A DNA stretch of 64,000 nt from an uncultured archaeon (GCA_963782915.1 CAWALK010000020.1:224001-288000); one strand, 5' to 3'; positions 3,722 through 40,461 are shown, counted from the first letter of the stretch. Notes: generated from the letters alone by a model not told the origin. Numbers and translations: made by a program.

Positions 3722-3922
3722 TTATTTTTTGAGGATTTTTAGCACTACTTTTTCGCCCATCCAACAGAAAAACAGTATCGCACAGAAGGGGCCTAAGAAG
3801 AAGCCGAAGATAATCTCGTTGTTCTGAGTTGCCGCCTGAGCTAAAACTGGGTAAGTAACTACGCCTGCAATGACAAAGCAAACTGTTAGGATAAATGCGA
3901 TGGCAAAAGTGGCTGGTTTCAT
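3722..3922 (-). CDS. Small membrane protein
   Basis: 66 aa, two hydrophobic segments. Confidence 0.5.
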   Translation of the reverse strand: MKPATFAIAFILTVCFVIAGVVTYPVLAQAATQNNEIIFGFFLGPFCAILFFCWMGEKVVLKILKK

Positions 3923-13980: not shown

Positions 13981-14082
13981 TTAGTGGCAGCAGCCATGTT
14001 TCTCTTCTTTTTTTGTCTTCACAAACAATGCTAATCCAAGGGCAGCCATGGCGAAGCCAACGGTTGCTATATGCAACCCCAT
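13981..14082 (-). CDS. 33-aa membrane peptide ending in HGCCH (not in ORF track)
   Basis: MGLHIATVGFAMAALGLALFVKTKKEEKHGCCH*; GGAGA upstream; co-oriented directly before the cupin. Confidence 0.6.
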   Translation of the reverse strand: MGLHIATVGFAMAALGLALFVKTKKEEKHGCCH

Positions 14083-18149: not shown

Positions 18150-18590
18150 ATGGCTAATCAACAAGTAAGTAACCCGCCCAGTGCAGCTTATTACCTGACA
18201 CTAATCGGCGGCATATTAGGCGTAATAGTTGGAATATTCTTAATCTTCATCCTCGTCGGCGTCTGGATAATAATTGCAAACGTCCTGATGATTATTTATG
18301 CACAACGTATCCTGGCTCAACCAACAGAACATTCACACTATGGAACCTACATCATAATACTATCAATACTTTCAGGATTGAACCTCTTATGCTTGATCGG
18401 AGGCATACTCGCAGTAACATACCAACCAATGCCCACTCTGGCAGCGTCACAACCTTACCAAACAACCGCACCCTACACACAGCCAACAGGGTATGCCTAT
18501 GCATCCACCAAGTATTGCCCACAATGCGGTAACGCAGTCGGCGGAGAAGCCCAATTTTGCCCAAAATGCGGCAAAAAACTCTCCCCATAA
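18150..18590 (+). CDS. Membrane protein with C-terminal zinc ribbon
   Basis: TM segments then CPQCG...FCPKCGKKL. Confidence 0.75.
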   Translation: MANQQVSNPPSAAYYLTLIGGILGVIVGIFLIFILVGVWIIIANVLMIIYAQRILAQPTEHSHYGTYIIILSILSGLNLLCLIGGILAVTYQPMPTLAASQPYQTTAPYTQPTGYAYASTKYCPQCGNAVGGEAQFCPKCGKKLSP

Positions 18591-18602
18591 ACCTTTTTAA
18601 TT

Positions 18603-19026
18603 TTAGAGCTTCCCTCTAAGCTGCGCCCTAACCGTTTCAAAACAGAACCCAACAGCACAAACCGCAATAACCACCGCAGCAAAAAAATAACCACTCGTCA
18701 ACACAACAGGTCTAAAAAAAGCCAAATCAACCACAAGCCCAATAACCGCAAAAATTGCGTAGAAAAGATACCGCGGCACAAAATAGCGGCTAATTTTTAT
18801 GGTATCTTCCAAAATAACTCTGTCAACAACGTAATCTTCCGTTTTCCCGCTTTATCAACCCAGCGTCTTCAAGTTTTGCGAGATGATAAACCGCCAGTGA
18901 AGGCGAACTCAAATTTAGTGCTCTTTGAACTTCGCGGGTTCCCTGAGGTTTGCCTTTTTTGAGTAGGTAACGGTAGATTTCAAGTGTTGTTCCCTTGAGT
19001 ACATCTTCCGCTTTATCCGACCCCAT
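18603..19026 (-). CDS. Winged-helix regulator with C-terminal TM helices (frameshift near 18830)
   Basis: LKGTTLEIYRYLL...GTREVQRALNLSSPSLAVYHLAKLEDAGLI joined to the ISRYFVPRYLFYA TM fragment. Confidence 0.75.
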
Positions 19027-19186
19027 GGTATACCATCGTTCTTTTTCCAGTAGGGTTGGGTCTGATTTAAGCGCATCCATGTTCAAGAGTTTAGAACGGT
19101 TCCATGGGGGTTAAGCAGAGGTGTTCAAAACTGTAGAATTAAGTATGCACTTACCCATTGGCATATTAATTTGTTGAAGTGACCCT

Positions 19187-20572
19187 ATGAGCGCACAAAA
19201 AAACAAAACAATCATCGCCATAACTCTCGCAATGATAGCCGTTTTTCTTTTGGGCGGAGTAAGCTTTACCTTTTTTCCATCCCAAACAGCCAACCTCTAC
19301 ACTTTCTCCTCAGATGCGCATAATGTCGGACGCTCCAAGCATTCCAACAATCCTAGTCTCAGCACATATCATGTGGAACAGACCCATCCATGCTGACTCC
19401 AAGCTACTATTTCGTAATAACCCGATATTAACCCACTAGATACCATTAGCCATTCGATACCGATGGAAAGCATAAACTCCACAAACACGCCCATTCGTTA
19501 GAAATGGCAATATCTACACACAGACAAGTGACATTTTCAATCAAACAATCCTAATCCAGAAAGATAACATTGTTTTTGACGGTGCAATCACATTTTCAGG
19601 GCAACGTTTACAGCGACTTTCTGCGCTCAAAGACGGATAGAAATCCAGTAAACGTCAACATGGTAACGTAACAATCAAAAACTTCAACATTAGCTAATTC
19701 TTTCAGGGTATAATCGGTGCAAAATTCTGCACAAACCTGACTATTGAAAACAATAACTTAACCATACGGATAGCAATACGGCATACCGTAACTTCTGACG
19801 TCAACAATACTAAGGAAATAATCAGGCAACAGCTTCTCAACAATACTCCAACAGCTAATAACATTCTCAACCACTGGCAATAATGCGTTATGCAGAAACA
19901 ATGTAATTTCCAAAAACAGCATTATCGGAGCTTACAACGGAATATTCGCCAATTCCGTTTATAGCACTTTAGTTTCCGAAAACATGATGATGTCGATGTA
20001 AAAATCCCCATCTATGCATAGGATAAAACGCTCAAATCACAAACAACCAACTCTTCGACGGCGAAAACGCAATCACATCGACTCCTACGAGCACAGTAAC
20101 CGGCAACTATTATCTCAAATTTCAGAAGGCATATTCCTCAGTGGCGTTCAGAGCAGTCTATACCCAAAACACTGTCGCAAACTGTACCTATCCCATTGCC
20201 CTTTCTGGGTCAAACGATCCCTATCCCCTTGATAACAACACACTTCTATCATAACAACTTCATCAACTACACCCAGCCCTTATCGGCTCATCGAAATGCC
20301 TTCACTTTCGCTAATCAAATTGGGATAACGGTATGGAAGGCAACTTTTGGAGCAGCTACAGTGGCACCGACTGCAACGGCGATGGTATAGGCGACACTGG
20401 ATATGTTTTAGCTGGGAACTGTACTGATCGGTATCCGTTGATGCAGCCGTATGTGGCGCAATCACCTGATCTTGAAATGGGTCAATGGTTTTTTGTTGCG
20501 GCGGCGGTTGCTGCAGCTATAGGCGTAGTTGTGGTGGTCTTGGTTTACGCGAGGTTTAGAGGTCACCGTTAA
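19187..20572 (+). pseudogene. NosD/parallel beta-helix surface protein, heavily frameshifted (error-rich or decayed)
   Basis: Signal peptide, IQKDNIVFDG, FYHNNFIN, GNFWSSYSGTDCNGDGIGDTGY...DRYPLM, C-terminal TM. Confidence 0.75.
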
Positions 20573-20960
20573 CCAAGTCCGCTCTTTTTCTCCATGGCTT
20601 TGGGATGTCTCGGGTTTTTTATGCGAATTAGACTACCCTAAACAGCACAAAACATGCGCTTCCCGAAAGCCATCGCAGATTGGGCTGAACTCACTTCAAA
20701 AGGGCTGGCTTTTGCTATCTCTTCGGGCCATGTTTCACGACTAAAAGTGACTGTTTTTTCTCTTTCTTTTGAAGTTCTTTTTCGTGCAGTTGCTGTTTAT
20801 GATGTTCCAGTCCTTCGATTTTTTCTTTCTTGCTTTTAGGCATACATAAAACACCAAAATTGTATGCACTCACTAGAGATGTGGACGGTTAAAAATCATT
20901 GCTTGAGTGCAAAGTTGGTGGGTAGCCGTTGCAATTAGGGGTCAGCATAGGTTCAGCATT

Positions 20961-21184
20961 TAAATAGGGGTCTATCGGGGCAGACCAGCGGAAGTTGCCT
21001 ATTTATTCTTTATATAAGGGAGGGGGTAGGTGCCTCTGAGGTAGGTAGTAGGTTCTAACAATGCTTCTGCTTGTAAAATACTCCACAACCAGCCTGCAAC
21101 CCAAACCAGACGCAGACACAAAAAAGCAACCGCCTACCCAATCGGCTGGTTGTTGTTGAAATAAGAGGGGCACACAGCAACAAC
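20961..21184. repeat. Longest copy of dispersed intergenic repeat family
   Basis: AGGGGTCTAT...CTATTTATTCTTTATATAAGGGAGGGGGTAGGTGCCTCTGAGGTAGGTAG plus modules shared with 3124-3245. Confidence 0.8.
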
Positions 21185-21555
21185 CAATAAAAAAAATGTG
21201 CCTATCAAAAAGATTAACTCGCGCGCTGTATCCCTGCAAAAAATCTTAACAAGCGGGCAACCCAAAAAACCAAAAACAAACACCCTGAAACCCCAAGCGG
21301 TTGTTGTGTAGATGCACTTTTCACCAACAACTACTACCTAAAAACACCAAAAAACCTGCTTAACAAGGCATTCTTGGATAAACTATAAAAGGCTAAACGC
21401 AATCCACAAACAGTACACCTCACTGCAACGAAATGCATCCCTCTGGTAGGGACGTTAACTAGTCACTTTCGATAAAATGACTAAAATCTTAGTTGTGATA
21501 CGGAAAGCAATATAAATCGCTTTTACGTGTTTGAATGCGCATCGGAGAAATAATA

Positions 21556-22041
21556 ATGCCAAAATGGGGATACTCAATAATCCAAGAAATGCTAAATCCA
21601 GAAAAAACAGCGAAAGCCAGCGGTAGAGAACTCAAGGTATCCCACAAAGCCGCTAGGGAAGTCGCTAAAGCCCTAAAGGGTATGGATCTAGTACAAGCAA
21701 AAGATTTCCTCAGAGATGTTATGGTCAAAGCCAAACCAGTCCCATACACCCGATATACCAAGAAACTGGGGCACAAAGGCGGCATGCAAAACTGTGGAGT
21801 TGGCAGATACCCAATCAAATGCGCCGAATCAATCCTTGGCGTTTTGAAAGCAGCTCAAGCCAACGCAGAAAACAAAGGCTTAGACGTTGACCGCTTGAGA
21901 ATCATGCACTGTGCAGCCTATCCAGGCGTAAAACTAAAGCGTTACATGCCAAGAGCACACGGCAGAGCATCACCAAAATACGAAATTACCACTCACGTTG
22001 AAATCGTGCTCGAAGAAAAATCCACCTCAGGAGAGCAATAA
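21556..22041 (+). CDS. rpl22: 50S ribosomal protein L22
   Basis: MPKWGYS...GRYPIK...PRAHGRA...THVEIVL. Confidence 0.97.
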   Translation: MPKWGYSIIQEMLNPEKTAKASGRELKVSHKAAREVAKALKGMDLVQAKDFLRDVMVKAKPVPYTRYTKKLGHKGGMQNCGVGRYPIKCAESILGVLKAAQANAENKGLDVDRLRIMHCAAYPGVKLKRYMPRAHGRASPKYEITTHVEIVLEEKSTSGEQ

Positions 22042-30305: not shown

Positions 30306-30451
30306 GACCATCCGTTCCAACTTTATATTTTTTAATTTTTAATTTTAATTAATTAGCGAATTCTGTTAATAATTACTAATTTGTACTAACGGTAAGTTTC
30401 TAAATCCAAAAAGTTAGCTACAAAAAAAAGAACAAAGAAATTGTGGGAAAC

Positions 30452-31105
30452 TTAGTTGGTGTTTTCGAAGGTTTCTTTGAGTACACTGCGGTTTCTCCAG
30501 AAAACTTTGGATTCCGCAACATACTCTTTCTGTTGGGTGTTGTGATGTAGCATTGCACCCAAGTTCTTCTTTGCCACATATGCTTCTGCTGCGCGTAGAG
30601 GTTTGTAGATGAATGTGAAGTAGGCTGTTGCTGATCCCATCAAGAATCCGCTGAACCATAGTGGAGCTACGAAGAAGAAGAAATAGAAGTTCCACACATC
30701 AACGGGGCCGAATAATGCGATTTGTACTGGCGGCGGATAGGTCATGTTTGTCCAGTAGAAGCTGCCCAGCATGAAGTCAAGTGTGTTGAAGCCTAGTCCG
30801 GTCATGACTATAGCTATGAAGAATGCGCCTGTTAGGATTAAGATGTGTTTTTTGGTTTTTGTGTAGTTGAAGAATGAGGACATTGCAAGTCCTGTGGCTA
30901 AACCGCCGATTGCCATTGTTGCCAACCCAAAGAGGCTGTAGGCGTATTGGGCGTCCATGACGATGTAGTTGTTCATGTGCCACTGGAACGTCGCGTTTAC
31001 GCCGTACCATTCAGCGCCAATCATAACTCCAACATACAAACTATAACAGAGTAAAATAACGCTTAGCACCAATGCTGATGCTAAAGCAATTTGCTTTCCC
31101 CTCAT
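30452..31105 (-). CDS. Hypothetical multi-pass membrane protein
   Basis: Four hydrophobic segments; likely start MRGKQ at 31105. Confidence 0.65.
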   Translation of the reverse strand: MRGKQIALASALVLSVILLCYSLYVGVMIGAEWYGVNATFQWHMNNYIVMDAQYAYSLFGLATMAIGGLATGLAMSSFFNYTKTKKHILILTGAFFIAIVMTGLGFNTLDFMLGSFYWTNMTYPPPVQIALFGPVDVWNFYFFFFVAPLWFSGFLMGSATAYFTFIYKPLRAAEAYVAKKNLGAMLHHNTQQKEYVAESKVFWRNRSVLKETFENTN

Positions 31106-31300
31106 ATTCTCCCTTCCGAAACATGGAGGTAATTGCATCATTCTTAAAACTTTCTGAATCCGTAGATGGAACCATCGCTTGGATTCGATTGATATGCTAA
31201 TCCGTTTGCTATGGTTGCTCAAATGTTTTCTTGGAATGTTGAATCCGTATGCAACAAGCGTTAAATAATACTTCAAATACAACCACCCACTGGTGATGCG

Positions 31301-31606
31301 ATGCAGAAGTGGGCTGATTACTTAATCTCTTCCGTACGAACTAACCCGAGTAGTTGCCTTGTTGATTCTATGGAGATTCATTCAGACTTCGGTAATATGG
31401 TCTGTGAAACCGTAATAGCTTCTAGGGCAGATGTTATCGCCAACATAAAGCGGGGCATCACTTACTCCACAGTGTTTAAGACTGCGATGGGGAAATGGCG
31501 TAAAGGCGACGATGTGCACTTAGTTACCGTTAATGGGCAAGAGTATCTGCGTACTGATAGTGAATGTGTGGCTAAGGATCAATTCGACGAAGTGCCTGAA
31601 TTATAA
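31301..31606 (+). CDS. DUF3892 domain protein
   Basis: KWADYLIS...SRADVIANI...VHLVTVNGQEYLRTD. Confidence 0.8.
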   Translation: MQKWADYLISSVRTNPSSCLVDSMEIHSDFGNMVCETVIASRADVIANIKRGITYSTVFKTAMGKWRKGDDVHLVTVNGQEYLRTDSECVAKDQFDEVPEL

Positions 31607-31656
31607 AACTTACAACTTAACTTACCCCTATCAAAAAGCAAGTGTTCATACTGTTG

Positions 31657-31779
31657 TTAAATGGACACTTTGATTTCAGAGTATATGCTTTTGTGTTCCC
31701 TTAATCTGTGCTCTCTTAATTTGTTTGGGTTAGACATCATTGCTTTGCATATTGGGCATTTCAAAAACATGTAATCCAT
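31657..31779 (-). CDS. 40-aa C2H2 zinc-finger microprotein (not in ORF track)
   Basis: MDYMFLKCPICKAMMSNPNKLREHRLREHKSIYSEIKVSI*; C-x2-C-x12-H-x4-H; AGGAGG 6 nt upstream. Confidence 0.75.
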   Translation of the reverse strand: MDYMFLKCPICKAMMSNPNKLREHRLREHKSIYSEIKVSI

Positions 31780-31799
31780 AGCAGTCCTCCTTGGAATTA

Positions 31800-31908
31800 G
31801 GCGGACTTTTGCTCTCTTAATCCAAGTTTATCTATTAAGAGATAGCCTATTGGTGATGGAAACGAGTCTGTCTTGGCTGCGGTAAACTTGGACTACAGCA
31901 AGCCCGCC
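31800..31908 (-). ncRNA. Candidate kissing-loop leader RNA upstream of the Zn-finger microprotein
   Basis: 9-bp closing stem enclosing two hairpins whose loops CCAAGUUU and AAACUUGG are complementary. Confidence 0.6.
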
Positions 31909-32321
31909 CATTCAAAACGTGGATTTGAAGATAGTTAAATGATTGTTGGCTTCGCCCTGAAACAACTACTCAGAAAGTGAATATCTTAACGTTAAATTGC
32001 CCGCTCATTATTCAAGGAGTGTTAATGCATGCAATTTAGGCCCTATCAATAAAAGTCGTGAACAATAAATTTGAGTTATAATAGGAAAAAGGAGGGAGAG
32101 GACAAGAGTCGTCGTCTTTTTTCTCCCTACTTCTCTTTTTGAATAGCTTTGGTTTATCCATTGCTACGCGGTAAATTGGATCAGTGCCGCTTGGCTTGTG
32201 GTTGCATTCGATCTGCATCCTGCGTTAGCCTGCGAGCTTCTTTTCTTTTTGGCTCTTATCCTCACTTAAACTACTGGTGGGTTTAGTGTTATATAATTTG
32301 CGGAAATCCCTCTGGATAGGT

Positions 32322-32400
32322 TTAGTCAAGGAATGTAGACTAACCCTTAGTCAAGAAACATGAACTAAAAACTGCTGATTAGTCAAGGAACCTGCACAAG
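32322..32400. promoter_or_regulatory. Three tandem 22-bp imperfect palindromes (operator-like)
   Basis: TTAGTC-N10-GACTAA (32322), TTAGTC-N10-AACTAA (32347), TTAGTC-N10-CACAAG (32379). Confidence 0.6.
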
Positions 32401-32613
32401 AACCCTTTAATTTCTATCCGATCCAAGGCTTTATTTGTGGAGAAACATGCCAAAAAACAGTTCATCCGTCTATAAAATCTTCTTTGAATCCACTAATTTT
32501 TCACCTCAACTGCAGTACCCTTGGACAGAAGAGTTGCAATCTGAACAGGGGGAGGCTTCCTGAACCAACTAAGAGGCCGCCTAGTAAACGTTGACCTGAT
32601 TCGAACCATCGCC

Positions 32614-33666
32614 ATGATCGGTGTAATCCTCCTACATGCATCAGGCCGCTTCATAATAACCCCCGAAGAAATCAACCAGCTTAGCCCATTGGAGTTTACC
32701 CGCTGGAGCATCGTGGACGTCTATCAAAGCATCGCGGTTCCCTTGGGCGTTCCATTATTCCTAATGCTATCCGGCGCTCTTTTGTTGCAACCCCAAAAGA
32801 AAGATACCTTGCCGGTTTTTTTCAAGAAAAGATGGGCCAGAATCGGTTTACCCTCCCTGTTTTGGGGCACCGCATATTTCGCATGGGATTTTCTGGTCCA
32901 AAATATTCCCTTCTCCGCGGGAGTAATAGTTCAAGGCATACTCAATGGTCCCTATACGCAACTCTGGTACCTCTATGTGCTCGTCGGTCTCTACTTTTTG
33001 ACTCCGATACTGCGCATATTCATGGCTCATGCAGATTCGACGATGATAAAATACTTCATAATCTTGTGGACCGTTGGCGTAGCCATCATACCCTTCTTGA
33101 GCTTATTCAGCATTTACAAACTAAACGATAACGTCTTCGCACTCACTGGGTACGTTGGCTTCTTTGTGTTAGGATCTTACCTATCAACCGTGCACATACG
33201 CCGCAGAACTCTTGGAGCTCTCTTTATTTCCGGCGTCGCCTTAACCGCACTTGGCACATATGCCTTAGCCGCAACAAAGGGCGGGACAGAAATGTACTTT
33301 CTACAACAATACTTTAGCCCAACAATCATCTTAGCCTCAGTCTCCGCGTTTCTGCTGCTAATGACAATTAAGCCCCCCACCATTCAGAAAGACAGCAGCC
33401 CCTCTAAAGTCAACAAGCTAATCAAATTGATCAGCGTAAACACTTTAGGCATATTCTTCATCCACGTAATGATAATTGAATCCATACAATTGGGCTACTT
33501 TGGTTTCACAATGAACCGCACCACACTTAACCCCGTCATCGAGGTTCCATTGTTAACGGCAATCGTGCTGTTTGCTTCTCTTGGGATAATTCTTTTACTC
33601 AAAAAGATACCATATCTAAAACGGTTGATTGATGGGACATCTGAACATTTGGGGGGCGAGGAATGA
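32614..33666 (+). CDS. Acyltransferase family 3 (WecH/OafA-like O-acetyltransferase); true start slightly upstream
   Basis: DLIRTIAMIGVILLH, VPLFLMLSGALLL, QLWYLY, LGIFFIH. Confidence 0.88.
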   Translation: MIGVILLHASGRFIITPEEINQLSPLEFTRWSIVDVYQSIAVPLGVPLFLMLSGALLLQPQKKDTLPVFFKKRWARIGLPSLFWGTAYFAWDFLVQNIPFSAGVIVQGILNGPYTQLWYLYVLVGLYFLTPILRIFMAHADSTMIKYFIILWTVGVAIIPFLSLFSIYKLNDNVFALTGYVGFFVLGSYLSTVHIRRRTLGALFISGVALTALGTYALAATKGGTEMYFLQQYFSPTIILASVSAFLLLMTIKPPTIQKDSSPSKVNKLIKLISVNTLGIFFIHVMIIESIQLGYFGFTMNRTTLNPVIEVPLLTAIVLFASLGIILLLKKIPYLKRLIDGTSEHLGGEE

Positions 33667-34322
33667 ATAGAAAAAAGTTGATGATGCTAGCGGCTGGATT
33701 AGTTGTCCTGCTCATTTCGTCAGGGTTGGTAGCATACTACCTATTCGCTGACAAAGCTTCAGAGTCAATCCGCGTTGCCTGCGTCGGAGACAGTCTCACC
33801 CAATCAACCGAATACCCCTATGACCTGTGGAATCTGCTGGGCAACCAAAGCTATAGCCTCCGCAATTTTGGTGCAGGCTCAACCACAGTTACGCTGCAAT
33901 CAGAAACACCCTACATGAACACAACCGTATTCCAAGACGCCCTAAACTTCCAGCCAAACATCGTAATCATCATGCTTGGAACCAACGACGCCCAACCCAG
34001 CTTGCACCAATTCAACGCAAGCTTTGTCGGTGACTATGTGAAGTTGGTGACGGCATTTCAGGGGCTTTCAAGTAAACCTGAAGTGTGGGTTGTTTTACCC
34101 CCGCCGATTATCAGCAACCAATCGGGCAAAATGGATAGTGCCTATTTCGAGGACACTATAATTCCAGGTATCATGCAAGCGGCAAACGAGACGGATGTGC
34201 CGGTAATTGATGTTTATTCGGCGTTTGCCGAGCGCCCCGATTATTATCTGGATGGGGTCCACGTGAATAGTGAGGGTGCAAAATTAATCGCTGACACGGT
34301 ATATTCGGCTGTTTTTTCCTGA
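33663..34322 (+). CDS. Membrane-anchored SGNH/GDSL hydrolase
   Basis: N-terminal TM; CVGDSLT, MLGTND, DGVH. Confidence 0.9.
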   Translation: MNRKKLMMLAAGLVVLLISSGLVAYYLFADKASESIRVACVGDSLTQSTEYPYDLWNLLGNQSYSLRNFGAGSTTVTLQSETPYMNTTVFQDALNFQPNIVIIMLGTNDAQPSLHQFNASFVGDYVKLVTAFQGLSSKPEVWVVLPPPIISNQSGKMDSAYFEDTIIPGIMQAANETDVPVIDVYSAFAERPDYYLDGVHVNSEGAKLIADTVYSAVFS

Positions 34323-34337
34323 TGGTGAGTAGCCGAC

Positions 34338-34692
34338 CTATTTTTCTTGTTTTGCAGTTGTTTTTGGGGTTGCGAGTTGTTTTCTGATTATGAGAAACAG
34401 CGCCACAAACAGTGCTGCCGCAACTACAGCTGAGGTTGCACCCATTATGAGCCATGCTTGCCATGCTGGCATGAAGGTTTCCAAATAACGCAGGGACCCG
34501 ATGAGGAAAAACAGTGCAGCTGACCCCGCCATAGAGATACCTGAGCACATAAGTACAGCGCCCGTGATAGAGATTATTAAGAGTTTTTTCAGGCGTGCTT
34601 TAAGGGCTGCTTCTTGTTTATTGGCATATTCTTTTAGGGCTGCTTTTAGTTGGTCGAAGAATTGAGTGATTAATTCTTTAAGCTCCGTTATT
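34338..34692 (-). CDS. Two-TM membrane protein (YqjE/phage-holin-like architecture); start uncertain
   Basis: Frame stays open upstream of 34550: amphipathic helix (ELKELITQFFDQLKAALKEY..) then two TMs and a basic tail. Confidence 0.45.
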
Positions 34693-34864
34693 GTTTTTAC
34701 CCACCTAAAAACTGACTTTGCCCTGACGGTTTTTGTTGGCAGTTGGTTTAGGGCTGAACAATTTTTAAGGCTGTGTGGTTGCCAGCTAACAGCAACAGTT
34801 GTTTAATGGTGTACTTTCAGGGAAAGGGTAACTCTTACCTATTTGCAATAGACCAAAAACCGTC

Positions 34865-34910
34865 CTGTTCTGCTTGCGGTTTGCTCTACAACCAGCCAGC
34901 AACCCAAACA
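34865..34910. repeat. Partial copy of dispersed repeat family
   Basis: CTGTTCTGCTTGCGGTTTGCTCTACAACCAGCCAGCAACCCAAAC matches 3124-3170. Confidence 0.75.
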
Positions 34911-35239
34911 ATAACCCAACACCAAAACAAGCACTAATCACCTAAAACCCTCCATTTCCTTTCGGGTATTTAGTGAAGTTAAATCTGGTTTTTTCCACAC
35001 AAGGGCTTATCCGACCTCAATTATGAAAGGCAGCCTTCAGTACTCCAAAGGCAGAATCGAAACTATTGTTTATGCATCCGTTTGCATTTTCCACAGCCAC
35101 TCAAAGCAACAACAGACCTGAAACGTCGGTCAATCCATGGGGAAAACAGCAAGCATGCAGCCCACAGGAGAGGTCAAACTTACCGCTTTTCCCAGAGATG
35201 CCTACACAAAATAGCCCTATCACTAAACAGCCCTTATAA

Positions 35240-35305
35240 GAATTAACATATAGCTAACGCTGAGTCTAAAGACTGGTAATCAGGTTGGAGCTGTGGGAAA
35301 AGGTC
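35240..35305. repeat. 66-bp repeat, copy 1 (3' of surface-protein gene)
   Basis: GAATTAACATATAGCTAACGCTGAGTCTAAAGACTGGTAATCAGGTTGGAGCTGTGGGAAAAGGTC aligns ungapped with 36240-36305. Confidence 0.85.
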
Positions 35306-36047
35306 ATTGCTTCAAGTTTGCGGTTTTTCGATGGCTAATTACCACAGCAACAGCAAATACCAACAGAAGCAAAGGCACAATGGCCAACCAAGATAACTCT
35401 GGAACTGTTGGAGAGAGTGTAGGTGTTGGATTGTTGCTTTCTAATATGGTTACTGTTTGGGTCGGGCTCCAGTCACTTGATACGCCTGTAAACTTGTAAT
35501 AACTGCCCAAGCTTACTGTACCGCCGCCAACATCAGCAATATGCCCTATCTGTGCTTGCACTTCAAAATCTTCTTGTCCCTCATGAACACCAAAAATAAA
35601 TGTCGTGTTAGCCGCTTCTGATTGGGTGAAATAAGGAAAAACCCCTCTGCTGATAATCATACCATTCCAAGGAGTGGCAGTTACTCCATCAGGATTAAAA
35701 GGGAAATAAGTCCATTGGGTTCCGTAATGTCCTTTGTATCTAAAATTATAGTATAAGCCGATGTAGTTGCCGTTGGAGTCATTGTATGGCGTGAAAGGTT
35801 GGTTCTTAACCGTGACTTCAATAGACCTATTATCTACGTGATAACCTGCTTGGATTGTTATGTTCTGCCCTGTGTATTGGTCTATTCCATATTTAGGTGG
35901 AACATCATAAGAATAGTCAACATATCTAAGGGTAAATTCTGGTACAGATGGCTTAGGTATAGACTGAGCAGAAGTAAGACTAACTAGCGATAAACTTGAA
36001 ACCATCAGAAAGATGGCAACTAACAGGAACGCTTTCTTTCTTCCCAT
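35304..36047 (-). CDS. Secreted surface protein with C-terminal VPE/PEF-like sorting TM
   Basis: Signal peptide, PKPSVPEFTL, SDWSPTQTV, PTVPEL-TM-basic tail. Confidence 0.8.
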   Translation of the reverse strand: MGRKKAFLLVAIFLMVSSLSLVSLTSAQSIPKPSVPEFTLRYVDYSYDVPPKYGIDQYTGQNITIQAGYHVDNRSIEVTVKNQPFTPYNDSNGNYIGLYYNFRYKGHYGTQWTYFPFNPDGVTATPWNGMIISRGVFPYFTQSEAANTTFIFGVHEGQEDFEVQAQIGHIADVGGGTVSLGSYYKFTGVSSDWSPTQTVTILESNNPTPTLSPTVPELSWLAIVPLLLLVFAVAVVISHRKTANLKQ

Positions 36048-36177
36048 ATGATGTAACCAGCAAGAAATGATAAAAATATTCTTTCAAGTTAGCGGTAGAA
36101 CCAAAACGGAGGGTGGGTACACTGCATCGCTGGAAAAGGTAGTTAAGTGCCCTTCAAAGGGTATATCACCTTTAAAC

Positions 36178-36236
36178 TTAGGCGTCAGCGCCTAGTCACA
36201 TGCAGAAACGGCTTCTCTTCAGCTGCAAGCGCGAGC
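36178..36236 (-). pseudogene. Terminase large-subunit extreme 3' remnant (copy C)
   Basis: LALAAEEKPFLHVTRR* matches the end of copy B (PLATGEKPFLYVVRR*). Confidence 0.6.
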
Positions 36237-36239
36237 TGA

Positions 36240-36305
36240 GAATTAACATATAGTCAACGCTGAAACTGAAGACTGGAGATCAGGCTGGAACTGTGGGAAA
36301 AGGTC
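36240..36305. repeat. 66-bp repeat, copy 2
   Basis: GAATTAACATATAGTCAACGCTGAAACTGAAGACTGGAGATCAGGCTGGAACTGTGGGAAAAGGTC. Confidence 0.85.
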
Positions 36306-37114
36306 TATTTGCTCAAGTGAGCGGTTTTTAGATGCCTTCTAAAAAGCAATACCGATAGAGCCACCGCAATTAGCGCAACCACTGCAATGATAATTAAGAC
36401 ATCCAAGGGCAAGGTGACTGAATTGGTAGAGTTACCATTTGTGTCTGGTGCAGTCGGTGTTACAGTAGGCGTTGAAGTGGTAGTTGAAGTTTGACCTATT
36501 ATTAATGTTTGGGTGTTGCTCCAATCGCTATATTGGCCTACAAAATGGTATTGTTTATCCCGATAATACATGTAGCCTGCTATTGCCTGTACTTGGGTAT
36601 CAAGAGAGACACCCTGAGGAACTCTCCAAACGCCCGGGATCTTGATGGTTACGGTAGTATATTCGGCGCTGGATTGTGAAAAAGCGGGGGCAGAAGGTCT
36701 CTCCTCAAGGGGAATGAATGACCCGCCATAAGTGTTTGAAGACTGACCGTCTGGCATAAATGGATAATAGTCCCACTCTGCTCCATAAGCGCCTTTTACC
36801 CTGAAGTTATAGTACAGACCAATATGGGTCCCGTTTGCATCCGTATAGGGAGTAAATAGTTGATTTTTTATGGTGAACTGTATCGACCTGTTATCGACAT
36901 GGTAGCCATTTTGTGTGATGATGGTTTTTCCTGTGTATTGGTCGATTCCATAGGTTGGTGGTACATCATAGGATAGGTCTATGTATTTTGGAGTGAATTC
37001 TGGAACAGACGGCTTGGGTGTTGATTGAGCAAAAGTTGGCTTAACCACACTCAGGCTTGGGATAGCTAATAGAACTAAAAGCAATAGAATCAAACTTTTG
37101 CTCAGTAATCGCAT
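36305..37114 (-). CDS. Secreted surface protein, paralog of 35304-36047
   Basis: PKPSVPEFT, YDVPPTYGIDQYTG, GLYYNFR, SDWSNTQT, Thr-rich linker, C-terminal TM. Confidence 0.8.
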   Translation of the reverse strand: MRLLSKSLILLLLVLLAIPSLSVVKPTFAQSTPKPSVPEFTPKYIDLSYDVPPTYGIDQYTGKTIITQNGYHVDNRSIQFTIKNQLFTPYTDANGTHIGLYYNFRVKGAYGAEWDYYPFMPDGQSSNTYGGSFIPLEERPSAPAFSQSSAEYTTVTIKIPGVWRVPQGVSLDTQVQAIAGYMYYRDKQYHFVGQYSDWSNTQTLIIGQTSTTTSTPTVTPTAPDTNGNSTNSVTLPLDVLIIIAVVALIAVALSVLLFRRHLKTAHLSK

Positions 37115-37302
37115 AAGTACCCTGTGAAGTCGCTTTCAATAAAAGTTTACTGAAATCTTGTTTATGAGTAGTAACATCTTAACTGTGCAGATACATAGAC
37201 GGAAAAAGGCTCAACCACCTTTTCAAAAACTTAGGCGAGGGTTTTTCAATCCAAATGCTAGAATTCTGGTTATGTTGCTTATACCCTCACTATCTAAAGG
37301 CG

Positions 37303-37452
37303 TCAACGCCTAACCACATAAAGAAACGGCTTTTCTCCGGTTGCAAGCGGTTAACTATACCGCAGAGCATCGGTCGCATGGTCGTTTTCTTTGATGTCTT
37401 CCTGATACTCCAACAATTCGCTAATCAAGTTAACATAGCGCTTCATAGCACT
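37303..37452 (-). pseudogene. Terminase large-subunit C-terminal remnant (copy B)
   Basis: KRYVNLISELLEYQEDIKENDHATDALRYS*PLATGEKPFLYVVRR*. Confidence 0.75.
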
Positions 37453-37531
37453 CACACCGAACTAACAACGGGCCAAGGATGCCTCCGAAATGTTCATTTT
37501 GTTGGCAAAGGTAAAACTTGTAGGTCTCTTT

Positions 37532-38242
37532 ATGAGCGAAGTTTTAAAAGTTATCAGGGATCGTCAATCCTCCAGGGTACAATTTGACCCCAATAGACCA
37601 ATCTCCAAAGATAATATCAATCAGATACTGGAGTCTGCACGATGGTCACCTACAGGACATAACATGCAGAACTACGAAATCATGGTTATTGACGACAAGG
37701 CGCTGCTTGAAAAAATTGGCAGCGTAAAATCATGCGTCTTAGAGGAATTCTTACGCGACAACTATGAGCACCTGTCTTTCTCCGAGGAAGAACTCAAGCG
37801 GAAGAAGACTGGCATTTTATCAACTGGTTTTCCACTTGACTGGATTGACCCAGCCAAATTCCCCCAAATTGCACGTTCTCCCCCGATACCGATTAGCAAT
37901 TCCATACGAGGCAGCCCAACCCTTCTAATGGTTTTGTATGATTCAATAAAGAAAGCACCTGCCCTTGCCGTAGATGTTTATGGTTTCATTAGTTTAGGCT
38001 GCCTCATGGAGAACATCTGGCTGACTGCACAGGCTCTGGGAATTAGCATGCAAATTCTAAGTTTATCTGCCACAGTATCTGTTGAGAAGGAACTAAAACA
38101 GATCCTTGGAGTTCCCGACCCGCTAAAAATTGCTTACACAATCCGTCTGGGATATCCACTAATGCCCACAGAAAGCTTGCGCGTCAGAAGAGACATCGAG
38201 GACTTCACCCATCATAATCGGTATGGTCAAAAAGGAATTTAA
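37532..38242 (+). CDS. Nitroreductase family protein
   Basis: IRDRQSSR...ILESARWSPTGHNMQN...MENIWLTAQALGI...LGYP. Confidence 0.9.
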   Translation: MSEVLKVIRDRQSSRVQFDPNRPISKDNINQILESARWSPTGHNMQNYEIMVIDDKALLEKIGSVKSCVLEEFLRDNYEHLSFSEEELKRKKTGILSTGFPLDWIDPAKFPQIARSPPIPISNSIRGSPTLLMVLYDSIKKAPALAVDVYGFISLGCLMENIWLTAQALGISMQILSLSATVSVEKELKQILGVPDPLKIAYTIRLGYPLMPTESLRVRRDIEDFTHHNRYGQKGI

Positions 38243-38313
38243 CAAGCTTCAATACGCACCCATCTAAAAACCGCTCTTTTTTAGCGGGCGTTATTGCTTC
38301 TTTCATAGCAATC

Positions 38314-38652
38314 TCAAGTAAGGTACACCCTCAACATCGAACCACATACAGACGGCTTTTCTTCTTGAGCGAGCGGCAAACTATACCGTAGAGTATCAGT
38401 CGCATGGTCGTTTTCTTTGACGTCTTCCCGATACTCCAACAATTCGTTGATAAGGTTGACGCAGCGTTTGCTTACAAACTGGCGGGGCTTCCCATCAATA
38501 GCAGGAGTTAGGCGGCTTACAAGTTCCCCGCAACCCATCTTTACGTTTGAAAGTATAGGGCTTAGCGTTTAACCCTGCGCGGCAAAGCTTCAGAATCGAC
38601 TGGGGAAAAGGGGCATCGCACCAAAACGTTCCCTCACCCCATTCCTCTCTCT
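38314..38652 (-). pseudogene. Terminase large-subunit C-terminal nuclease remnant (copy A, frameshifted)
   Basis: EEWGEGTFWCDAPFPQSILKLCRAGLNAKPY..KDG/ELVSRL..DGKPRQFVSKRCVNLINELLEYREDVKENDHATDTLRY resembles the terminase DH..DALRY motif. Confidence 0.75.
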
Positions 38653-38917
38653 ATCTTTGTTTGTGAAGTTTGCTTATTTGTGCAGGTTGGCGTGTGGGTG
38701 GTTTAGTTTTTGTATTGGGTTGGGTGTTGTGTGTTTGTTGGTTGTTCTGAATTTTGTGGCCCTTTGTGTTGTGCCACGGGTGGTACAAGACGGCTTATCT
38801 GTAATCAGCGGCTCTTCGGGGGTACGGGCGAACCGAATTGAATGGGCCATGCTAGTGCCCGAACTCATTGCGCTGTTCATTGCTATCATTGATTGCAAAG
38901 TAATTCAGGAATTCAGT

Positions 38918-39024
38918 CTATATATAAGGGAGGGGGTAGGTCGGCAAAGCAGCAAAGCTGCGTTTTATAGGAGATAGGGGGTCTATGCAGAGCAGCAGCA
39001 GCCTAGTCTATTTATTCTTTATAA
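38918..39024. repeat. Left part of a dispersed repeat copy interrupted by the IS
   Basis: TATATAAGGGAGGGGGTAGG...AGGGGGTCTATGCAGAGCAGC...CTATTTATTCTTTATAA; continues at 40129-40162. Confidence 0.75.
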
Positions 39025-40128
39025 CAGAACAAAGTTTATGAATAGCGCTGTAACCAGCTTTTGGGTATCAAGCATGACTAGCTACAGCGCCATCCCTAGA
39101 CGAAGGGATAAGCTAAAGGCTTACTTATATTTACAGAACAATCGGCAGCTTCCTTAATCTCAAACACGCCCGAAATAGCCAAGAAACCACCAAAACGCTC
39201 ATCCTAGGAGCAGGGACAACAGCTACATAGAAGGGTGCGCACAAAACCTCCAACTTGCGCAAACAGTCAGAAACCACGAAAACAACAAAACCCTCAACAA
39301 AGACCCAAATCAACCGGCAAACAATCTAGCAAATGAAACAAAAAGGCGCCCTAAACAAGCCACTGGTTGTAGCCATAGACTGGCATGATGAAATGTACGA
39401 CGGTGACCCTAAAGCAAAAGGCGTAGTGGGAACCCACACAAGAACGGCTAAACCATGCCTACAGATATGAACGATAAGTGTTGCTACCGGTCAGAGATTA
39501 ACCTTAGCAGCAGCAACAATGATTCATAGAAGCAAGCTGTGGCATGTCAAGTATCTCCTAGACGTGTCTCTGAGTTGGGCTTAACAGTTAAGCTGGTGCT
39601 GTTGGATCGAGGCTACTTCTCCACTCAAGTGATAAACTATCTAGATGACGCCAAAATAAAGTACATAATGCATATTCCTTGGCATAAGGAGCCCTTAAGA
39701 GCCGGATTGGATGTATTTTATACAACGACTACGCATAAGAAGTCGGTTTTGGATCAGGCGACTTTTAGGCTTGTAACTGTGCGTCAAAACAAGAAGCTGC
39801 TTATTTTTGCTACCAACACCATGTTTAAGCCCAAGGTGCTTAAGAAGACGTTTAGGCGGCGTTGGGGGATTGAGACTTCTTATCGTATGATTGGGTTGTT
39901 TTTGGCTAAGACTACCTCTAAGCTCTATAGGTTGAGGCAGCTGTATTTCTTTTTGGCGGTTGTACTCTATAATTTGTGGGTTTTGTGGAATTTCAGGCGT
40001 AGAAGGCGTGTTAGGACGTATGCTCTTAAGAATGCTGTTAGGTTGTGTTTAGTCTTGTCTTGGCTGCCTGATTTGGAGGCTTACGGTTGATTTTTAGAGG
40101 AGGTGAAACACGATTTTTTGATCTACTG
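39025..40128 (+). mobile_element. ISH3-like (IS4 superfamily) insertion sequence, degraded
   Basis: CAG...CTG ends, ATAA duplicated at 39021-24 and 40129-32, internal DDE transposase fragments. Confidence 0.8.
39330..40090 (+). pseudogene. ISH3-family DDE transposase, frameshifted
   Basis: VVAIDWHDEMYDG, VLLDRGYFS, FRRRWGIETSYR, LYNLW. Confidence 0.85.
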
Positions 40129-40461
40129 ATAAGGGAGGGGGAGGTACCTCTGAGGTAGGTAGGCTCGTAAACGCACACAACAAACCCAAAGAAACCTCAA
40201 CAAGCAACCCAAAAGCACCATTTGCCACAGGACAAGTGCCTGCCTGCTCAACATTCAGTCTCCACCAGTCGTCAACACCCCAAAACAAGGCGGTAAATGC
40301 CCGAAAACACTAAGCACCCCAGCGCCAAATACCGCTATTATCGCTAGTTTTACCATCAAATAGCAATCTGTCCTTCAGGCATTTTCTAACCCTTTATGTG
40401 CGATACGTTTTATAACATCTTCAGGAAGATGGGTAGTTAAATCGGAGGGGGAAACCAACAA

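Follow-up and report, generated by a model that had tools for sequence, protein, structure and literature searches.

Why should the end of a single viral gene recur three times, each piece shorter than the last, between cargo genes in an archaeal genome? The question is raised by a 64,000-nt stretch of DNA from an uncultured archaeon (GCA_963782915.1 CAWALK010000020.1:224001-288000), referred to here as the window, with positions counted from its start. An original prediction made from this sequence had described pieces of the 3' end of a large terminase gene (TerL) alternating with cargo genes, and had read the arrangement as a gene-capture hotspot rather than one decayed provirus. The analysis presented here assigns a probability of about 0.62 to a reading in which positions 35047-38652 are the surviving piece of an HK97-type head-tailed provirus, from a family infecting this Bathyarchaeia genus, and in which the stack was made in the virus lineage. 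Throughout, C-numbers denote contigs of the window's own genome, G014 the genome of a related species and L-numbers the fetched loci.

Read on the minus strand from 38652 to 35047, the order is fragment A, a nitroreductase gene (on the other strand), fragment B, surface gene 1, R', fragment C, surface gene 2, R and the start of a capsid-protease gene. R is the leader of the protease gene and R' is a copy of its head. An nhmmer profile of four TerL ends matched the minus strand at 38528-38295 (E 1.1e-75), 37444-37277 (E 1.8e-43) and 36231-36176 (E 9.3e-8), and the three same-strand, progressively shorter pieces are thus found where they had been predicted. Fragment A (38314-38652, minus strand) is a pseudogene piece covering TerL residues ~341-444. 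Its TerL sequence, 38648-38314, stops abruptly at ~38650 at the edge of a dispersed repeat that cuts it upstream; a frame change lies near 38528-38540 (tblastn, two frames), and a 74-aa frame is open from 38538 to 38314. Fragment B (37300-37455, minus strand; nhmmer and alignment) covers residues ~402-444 and has a premature in-frame TAA after RYS. Fragment C (36176-36231, minus strand) holds, as had been claimed, only the last ~17 codons (residues ~428-444) and the stop, followed by a hairpin. The tails are 339, 156 and 56 nt long, and a repeat search aligned A with B over 127 nt at 80% identity and B with C over 52 nt at 83%.

Pfam returned no family for fragments A and B; their identity was decided by comparison with intact relatives and with PHROGs. 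Intact TerL also had no Pfam match at E 1e-5, whereas the N-terminal part of the C18 terminase matched Terminase_6N (E 9e-6). Against PHROGs, fragment A alone matched terminase large subunit (E 2.7e-4), and the intact TerL protein matched phrog_2, also terminase large subunit (E 2.7e-28). A profile of 11 TerL family members matched 2wbn, the nuclease structure of the SPP1 large terminase (G2P), with E 1.3e-7; the motif NDHATD.LRY of A and B (NDHAvDALRYS in the family) aligned to NHTIDATRYA of SPP1. By DNA, A (38338-38648) is 88.6% identical to the 3' end of the C18 terminase (blastn). Homology thus identifies A, B and C as 3' ends of the large terminase, as the original prediction had proposed. 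A search for a terminase or provirus elsewhere found the C18 provirus in the same genome and, in G014, two intact 444-aa TerL versions ending in ...NDHATDALRYSLPLQFEEKPFLYVVRR. Intact relatives carry the Walker A motif CGTGSGKT. The complete N-terminal ATPase domain is not present in the window, and the genome's sole N-terminal TerL domain, on C18, is frameshifted. The window pieces are remnants rather than genes, because only C-terminal residues are present.

The protease side of the stretch bears further viral sequence. R (35101-35290, minus strand; nhmmer 35263-35101, E 2.2e-48) is the non-coding leader or promoter region of the capsid-protease gene, an element of ~160 nt that precedes this gene in every relative and is near-invariant over 18 loci; its head has a putative TATA-like sequence, CTATATGTTAATTCTTATAA. 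It is followed by the first codons of a capsid (head-maturation) protease (35047-35105, minus strand; from blastn to C18 and the sequence itself). Positions 35105-35047 give ~13 readable codons, SGCGKCKRMHKQ, and then a stop; they match the protease start MSEGLGCGKCKRVHEQ, and the homology ends at 35047. Window 35047-35270 is 81% identical (blastn) to C18 13910-14142, in which the protease starts at 14075, and the intact protease homologues are head maturation proteases by PHROG. The original prediction had seen no portal, capsid or integrase. The absence of an integrase was borne out by Pfam, but it was not quite right that nothing else viral is visible, R and the protease start occupying 35290-35047.

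The order of TerL tail, R and protease start in the window is that of intact proviruses, and the stretch is read as a provirus remnant because it keeps this order. For the same reason the opposition of a hotspot to a single decayed provirus was not upheld. The remnant is bounded on the TerL side by a dispersed repeat and then an insertion sequence (IS), and on the protease side it ends near another dispersed repeat. The C18 provirus in the same genome has a terminase ATPase domain, a head-maturation protease, a cement protein, an HK97-type capsid protein and two TerL tails.

Further observations concern R and these proviruses. R (window 35101-35290, minus strand; L006/C18 13917-14078; L007/C19 8903-9059, minus strand) is less variable than the adjoining TerL coding sequence, and the C19 copy is an isolated one with no protease gene. 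The predicted structure of R includes a long-range fold in which CAGCUCUGGGGAAAG... pairs with ...UUUUCCCCAUGGGUUG. RNA structure in R was considered and set aside, 0 of 38 predicted pairs having a compensatory change because R hardly varies. The C18 provirus (L006/L009, ~3.8-28 kb) is decaying and adjoins tRNA-Lys (3756-3833); its terminase, a phrog_11143-like gene, a cargo kinase and a portal-like gene are each broken by frame changes. Within it a second CheB-CheR-PAS kinase paralogue (18492-21756), which the G014 relative shares, hints at a second position for cargo. L008 (C11 134121-142853) is a second provirus remnant whose protease, frameshifted capsid and portal-like genes have ~70% DNA identity to C18; a terminase for it was not found in the window's genome.

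The genes between the fragments are those that had been predicted, a nitroreductase and two paralogous surface proteins. The nitroreductase gene (37490-38242, plus strand; Pfam PF00881, E 1.8e-24) is oriented opposite to the TerL pieces, and B lies directly upstream of its start codon. Its relatives place it in a host family: 42 of 43 in public genomes have no TerL flanks, and only the G014 copy is flanked. No match was found in viral contigs or in metagenome loci with TerL, and no complete virus with A-nitroreductase-B was found. Surface gene 1 (36305-37114, minus strand; an open reading frame (ORF) of 269 aa) and surface gene 2 (35304-36047, minus strand; an ORF of 247 aa) encode proteins with a signal peptide, a C-terminal anchor and no Pfam family, the first with a basic tail. 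They belong to a host family that has ~14 other loci in the window's genome. The two proteins share 45.7% identity and do not group as sisters in a 16-member tree (weak support, 82/56 and 88/81), and the non-coding flanks of their genes are 83-87% identical. One recent tandem duplication as the origin of the copies is disfavored because of these three values taken together. By their sequences, the surface genes fit modules with conserved flanks and exchanged content.

The seams between these modules contain recurrent sequences. Behind B is a 5-bp hairpin, AGGCG TTGA CGCCT, followed by a conserved box, TAGATAGTGAGG; the hairpin behind C is AGGCG CTGA CGCCT. As had been noted in the original prediction, B and C share their downstream sequence (CGCCTAAGTTT...AAGGTG). 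The leader behind C is also similar to those that follow the two TerL tails of provirus L025. R' (36239-36289, minus strand) is a copy of the first ~50 nt of R (87% in the repeat search), has a 24-nt exact match to C18 R, contains the TATA-like CTATATGTTAATTCT and is joined to C via 7 unrelated bases. A 67-nt repeat (87%) follows both surface genes, at 35239-35305 and 36239-36305.

Relatives of the locus were collected from genomes of the genus and order (61 at first, then 120), and from public genomes, viral contigs and metagenomes. Loci were counted in the close clade (TerL >= 90% identical) where both the TerL end and R are present, with evident duplicate records merged. The slot, defined as the interval from the TerL stop to R, is empty in 6 of the 17 distinct loci and filled in 11, by 1.1-5.5 kb of unrelated cargo, most of it host-type. 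In the empty slots the TerL stop abuts R directly (TGA GGCTATA...). The C18 and G014 proviruses are collinear, with 90% and 94% DNA identity on either side, and their slots hold 4.7 kb vs 1.2 kb of unrelated DNA. By Pfam, the cargo depends on the locus, with kinases of two kinds (a CheB-CheR-PAS histidine kinase, intact at 1101 aa, and a PocR-PAS kinase), a protein with a RelA/SpoT domain, a PLD nuclease accompanied by a DEAD/MZB helicase, Kelch and NosD-type proteins, secreted or anchored proteins of no known family, and an ArsR-type regulator that occurs with a phosphatidyltransferase and a PNPOx protein. Units that lack a TerL body carry a catalase, a TFIIB homologue, an ABC transporter, a B12-radical-SAM enzyme and a DsrE/CGGC/cysteine-desulfurase set. 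These comparisons demonstrate the gene-capture hotspot that had been proposed, with flanks 90-94% identical around entirely different cargo and with copies in related genomes whose cargo differs by locus. At the level of sequence they support the position behind the TerL stop as a recurrent hotspot of the virus family, not of the host locus.

Some individual slots deserve mention. At L032 (12989-16301, minus strand) the PLD-family nuclease beside the DEAD/MZB helicase forms a pairing that resembles a defense system, and the RelA/SpoT-domain protein is another module of the slot. Homologues of post-portal genes lie on the same strand close behind the TerL tail in L056 (10001-11006), L083 (8572-7528, minus strand) and L094 (9097-6190, minus strand), with the protease-capsid block absent; L088 has the same post-portal gene set beside the tail on the opposite strand. 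These four may be deleted or rearranged relatives.

Scars like those of the window are found in relatives that are still recognizable as proviruses. Four of the 11 loci with cargo (C18, L025, L032 and L043) have TerL tails inside the slot, and in all four the TerL, protease and capsid genes are still present. In L043 the complete TerL lies 5 kb upstream, and the old tail still abuts R like an empty site; new material therefore appears to have entered inside the last ~50 nt of TerL, bringing its own gene end. At the C18 seam an 86-nt R head is joined to a 156-nt tail. Joins of R' to a TerL tail like that before C are seen in C18/L083 and in L092. The order in L025, of terminase, surface protein, short tail, surface protein and R, resembles the part of the window from B to R. 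Scars range from ~50 to 470 nt and begin at profile positions 41 to 168; R' measures ~50, 86 or 95 nt, and there is no R' at the seam of A-nitroreductase with B or at those of L025 and L032.

Judged from these scars, the most likely process is recombination between viruses with an imprecise right join. Cargo would arrive by exchange between related viral genomes, with the left crossover homologous within TerL and the right join falling imprecisely in the resident TerL tail, sometimes carrying the head of the incoming R. Each event would add a module and leave the old TerL tail as a scar, sometimes preceded by a promoter-bearing R head, which with its TATA-like sequence could drive the next gene. 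In the window such seams would have been stacked three times, giving A, nitroreductase, B, surface gene 1, R' with C, surface gene 2 and R. After integration the rest of the provirus would have been lost while the cargo genes stayed, with dispersed repeats and an IS now at its ends. The slot turns over fast in the virus family, taking up host-type genes. It is the scars from which the kind of recombination, the order of events and the persistence of the tails have been reconstructed. A microhomology mechanism was rejected: GCTTGA is common to R and the TerL tail near recurrent breaks, yet 0 of 3 joins of R' to a tail are clean at GCTTGA.

Second copies of the TerL end are also found 3-7 kb downstream in distant clades (TerL 52-79% identical), so that they are not confined to the close clade. 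These are at L155 2-1063 and 4707-4857, L044 11188-11297 and 18474-18623, and L048 10001-10783 and 13957-14154.

The unit A-nitroreductase-B demonstrates transfer between species. It is 91.7% identical to a G014 unit over 1253 nt, with 96% aa identity in the nitroreductase protein, whereas hsp20-rpl15-secY of the two genomes are 79% identical. The G014 unit lies at an unrelated place: in the 19 kb fetched there is no other match to window 29-43 kb, and the homology ends exactly at the end of B. No viral families were detected among the 12 ORFs neighboring it. These data bear on whether the stack could have arisen locally, a single-cargo provirus having integrated and later tandem duplications or insertions in the chromosome having made the three TerL tails. 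The layout lends this some appeal, as B-surface gene 1-R' and C-surface gene 2-R are arranged like a tandem repeat with a period of ~1.0-1.1 kb (spacings 1000-1118) and the locus is a variable rpl30-hsp20 island with an IS and dispersed repeats. However, the same unit occurs elsewhere in another species at an identity above that of core genes, the surface proteins have long branches in addition to the divergence already described, and like stacks are found in relatives whose TerL, protease and capsid genes remain. A local origin is therefore considered quite improbable. Because A-nitroreductase-B recurs in another species and the scars occur in relatives with TerL, protease and capsid genes, the data support formation of the stack in the virus lineage, as something mobile and not local to this chromosomal site; sequence comparison is the basis for this conclusion.

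Several observations weigh against the provirus-remnant reading as it stands. Nothing at the window locus explains how a provirus arrived: a tRNA scan of the window found none, hence no tRNA attachment site here, and Pfam on 16 ORFs (29.8-41.3 kb) found zero integrases or recombinases, the only mobile-element gene being a broken DDE transposase. The recombination has been read from scars, with no event observed. The join of R' to C has no independent read cover. Six short scars with unrelated upstream flanks (window C, L025, L032, L043, L092 and L099) start within ~17 nt of each other, at positions 152-168, which weighs against random breakpoints because random joins do not predict it. Finally, many tail-cargo-R units stand alone in hosts, in at least 8 lineages, with neither a TerL body nor capsid genes in the 8-10 kb fetched to each side; this is more regular than random decay of proviruses need be. 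The clustered starts could reflect a preferred site of breakage or recombination, or selection on the last ~50 nt of TerL with the hairpin; these, together with the box, might serve as a signal for expression. The clustering and the stand-alone units could both be accounted for by a preferred break or a cassette mechanism.

The cassette mechanism would be a site-specific or circle-mediated system in which units are excised as small circles and insert again in the TerL stop region or at R. It would operate in viruses and occasionally in chromosomes, through a recombinase acting in trans or through recombination between repeats, as proposed for PeSL mini-circles. Joins of R' to a TerL tail, such as a circularized cassette would have, are seen in three or four distinct lineages (window C, C18/L083 and L092). 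The conserved hairpin and box stand behind the TerL stop before different cargo; in the ~2.08 Mb of loci fetched, the box pattern was matched 5 times, each time directly behind a TerL tail. The flanks are far more conserved than the cargo. The clustered scars and the stand-alone units fit such a system, as does the presence of A-nitroreductase-B at unrelated loci in two species with homology ending at B. However, no recombinase gene was detected in or beside the array or, by Pfam, in the cargo segments of relatives that were scanned, where integrases were likewise absent. The lengths of the scars and of R' vary, several seams lack R' so that the joins are not uniform, and the hairpin has only 5 bp. 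Fragment-only copies with equal boundaries were rejected as proof of a fixed site: because they mostly share flanks, they are few lineages related by descent and not independent events. Such a system is judged unlikely overall; it keeps the weight it has because scar clustering and stand-alone units are unexplained by random joins.

A more specific form is a shade less probable again. In this form a mobile gene cassette of a family of Bathyarchaeia viruses would be bounded at one end by the TerL tail (its last ~50 nt with hairpin and box) and at the other by the head of R. The cassette would leave as a circle with a junction of R' and tail and re-enter at the TerL stop region, perhaps at a DNA break made there, such as a packaging cut. 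If so, viruses would ferry single host genes between species and deposit stand-alone tail-cargo-R units in chromosomes, with catalase, TFIIB, sensor kinases, nitroreductase and defense genes as candidate cargo.

An assembly artefact, in which reads from different viruses or strains were joined into a chimera at the repeated TerL tails, was weighed for the window itself. The genome is a metagenome-assembled genome of 25 contigs, the repeats are 50-150 nt long at 80-87% identity, and no single record spans the stretch. Three DNA sequencing runs, with small shares, and no RNA run were listed for the stretch. Short contigs from other runs cover parts of it, none of them extending over the join of R' to C or most of the nitroreductase gene. 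Nevertheless, exact contigs of 151-251 nt from these runs cross four boundaries: B and the nitroreductase start (37374-37524), A and the dispersed repeat (38588-38738, 151-nt exact), surface gene 2 and R (35265-35415), and the protease-side end (35018-35168). Copies as diverged as these would not easily collapse or be mis-joined, and the single-contig genome G014 has the identical order A-nitroreductase-B. Misassembly is accordingly regarded as very improbable.

As a provirus remnant with a stacked slot, the locus can be compared to known systems. Accessory-gene hotspots are reported to have been catalogued in phages (10.1101/2024.10.15.618418). Like moron or hypervariable phage hotspots, the window family has a fixed position between conserved genes, occupied by unrelated and often host-derived genes, some with putative signals of their own, in either orientation; it has empty sites as well, and prophage decay leaves cargo behind in the host. 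Unlike the catalogued hotspots, it belongs to Bathyarchaeia hosts, its slot lies directly behind the TerL stop and before the capsid-protease operon, its seams are marked by repeated TerL tails, and its cargo includes whole sensor kinases, a catalase and a TFIIB homologue. Among archaea, the locus family thus exemplifies a type of viral gene-shuffling hotspot that is already known. PMC10848311 describes tailed viruses and proviruses of Bathyarchaeia that bear a terminase; the passages searched in it make no mention of a variable slot behind the terminase, and literature searches returned nothing on such a slot in archaeal viruses.

PeSL cassettes are the other close likeness. In the hyperplastic regions of T4-type phages, repeated promoter and stem-loop units flank non-essential ORFs, and recombination shuffles the modules; promoter and terminator activity and mini-circles are reported to have been demonstrated (Arbiol et al. 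2010, PMC2839356). Here a TATA-like R head is joined to a hairpin-bearing TerL tail between cassettes whose flanks are far more conserved than their cargo. Such a join precedes surface gene 2 and is present in C18 and L092, whereas other seams have no R head. Compared with PeSLs, the repeats come from a gene end and one operon leader rather than a dedicated genome-wide motif, and they are seen here in sequence, where PeSL functions were demonstrated.

Single-gene units stacked at one insertion point with conserved boundary sequences also recall integrons. However, an integron-like array was rejected, as there is no recombinase or integrase beside the array, no attC-like sites (only the 5-bp hairpin at B and C), boundaries formed by TerL tails of unequal length and one inverted cassette, the nitroreductase; the platform here is a virus gene end. 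Integrative elements that insert in tandem at the 3' end of a target gene leave the displaced gene end as a direct repeat, as in tRNA-gene islands. The complete gene end with shorter copies downstream is similar, and L043 consists of a full TerL, cargo, an old tail and the native neighbor. Unlike those islands, the inserts have no integrase, the repeats are unequal and the target is a gene of the viral structural module instead of a tRNA gene. Integrase-mediated tandem insertion was rejected on the unequal repeat lengths, the starts spread from positions 41 to 168 and the lack of an integrase in the cargo scanned.

Bathyarchaeia are a very abundant archaeal class of sediments and soils, with viruses known almost only from metagenomes, and the literature searched held no description of how these viruses move host genes. 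Near-identical structural genes here accompany differing host-type cargo in one defined slot, comprising kinases, stress enzymes, a transcription factor, defense nucleases and surface proteins. The cargo crosses species (91.7% vs 79% identity) and persists in the host chromosome after the virus is gone. The TerL-tail scars form a readable record of successive acquisitions, and the clustered breakpoints raise the question of whether exchange is targeted.

The surroundings of the remnant contain several mobile sequences. The dispersed repeat that truncates A (38653-38998) has blastn matches on C15, C2, C4, C25, C8 and others. Next to it is the IS (39008-40163, plus strand) with a broken DDE transposase (39333-39470 and 39539-40090; Pfam DDE_Tnp_1, E 2.3e-9), of which copies 95.7-97.3% identical are on C15 and C23 (blastn, own genome). 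Just past the protease-side end is a piece of a second dispersed repeat (34862-34933), with many short blastn matches genome-wide. These two, and the repeat at 40129-40163, are short families resembling miniature inverted-repeat transposable elements, with dozens of copies genome-wide. The two repeats were considered as ends of a single transposon (they lie ~330 nt apart on C22 and C5), and this was rejected because both are abundant short families and no element could be defined. The G+C content is 0.41-0.48 across 26-45 kb, and the remnant has no distinct base composition. Rfam, at E up to 1 over 29-42 kb, gave zero matches.

Some archaeal-virus terminase contigs are filed under bacterial bins such as Gallionella, Bipolaricaulis and Gemmatimonadales (L038, L041, L042, L048 and L053/L057), probably through binning errors. 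The window remnant sits in an island between rpl30 and hsp20-rpl15-secY (30306-40461) whose size varies between species; rpl30 and hsp20 lie 0.5-0.7 kb apart in two related species, and about 9-10 kb apart in the window genome and in G014. The islands of these last two both carry a membrane protein, a 101-aa protein and an SGNH/GDSL gene. In the window, the SGNH gene (33663-34322) overlaps an Acyl_transf_3 gene (32614-33666) by 4 nt.

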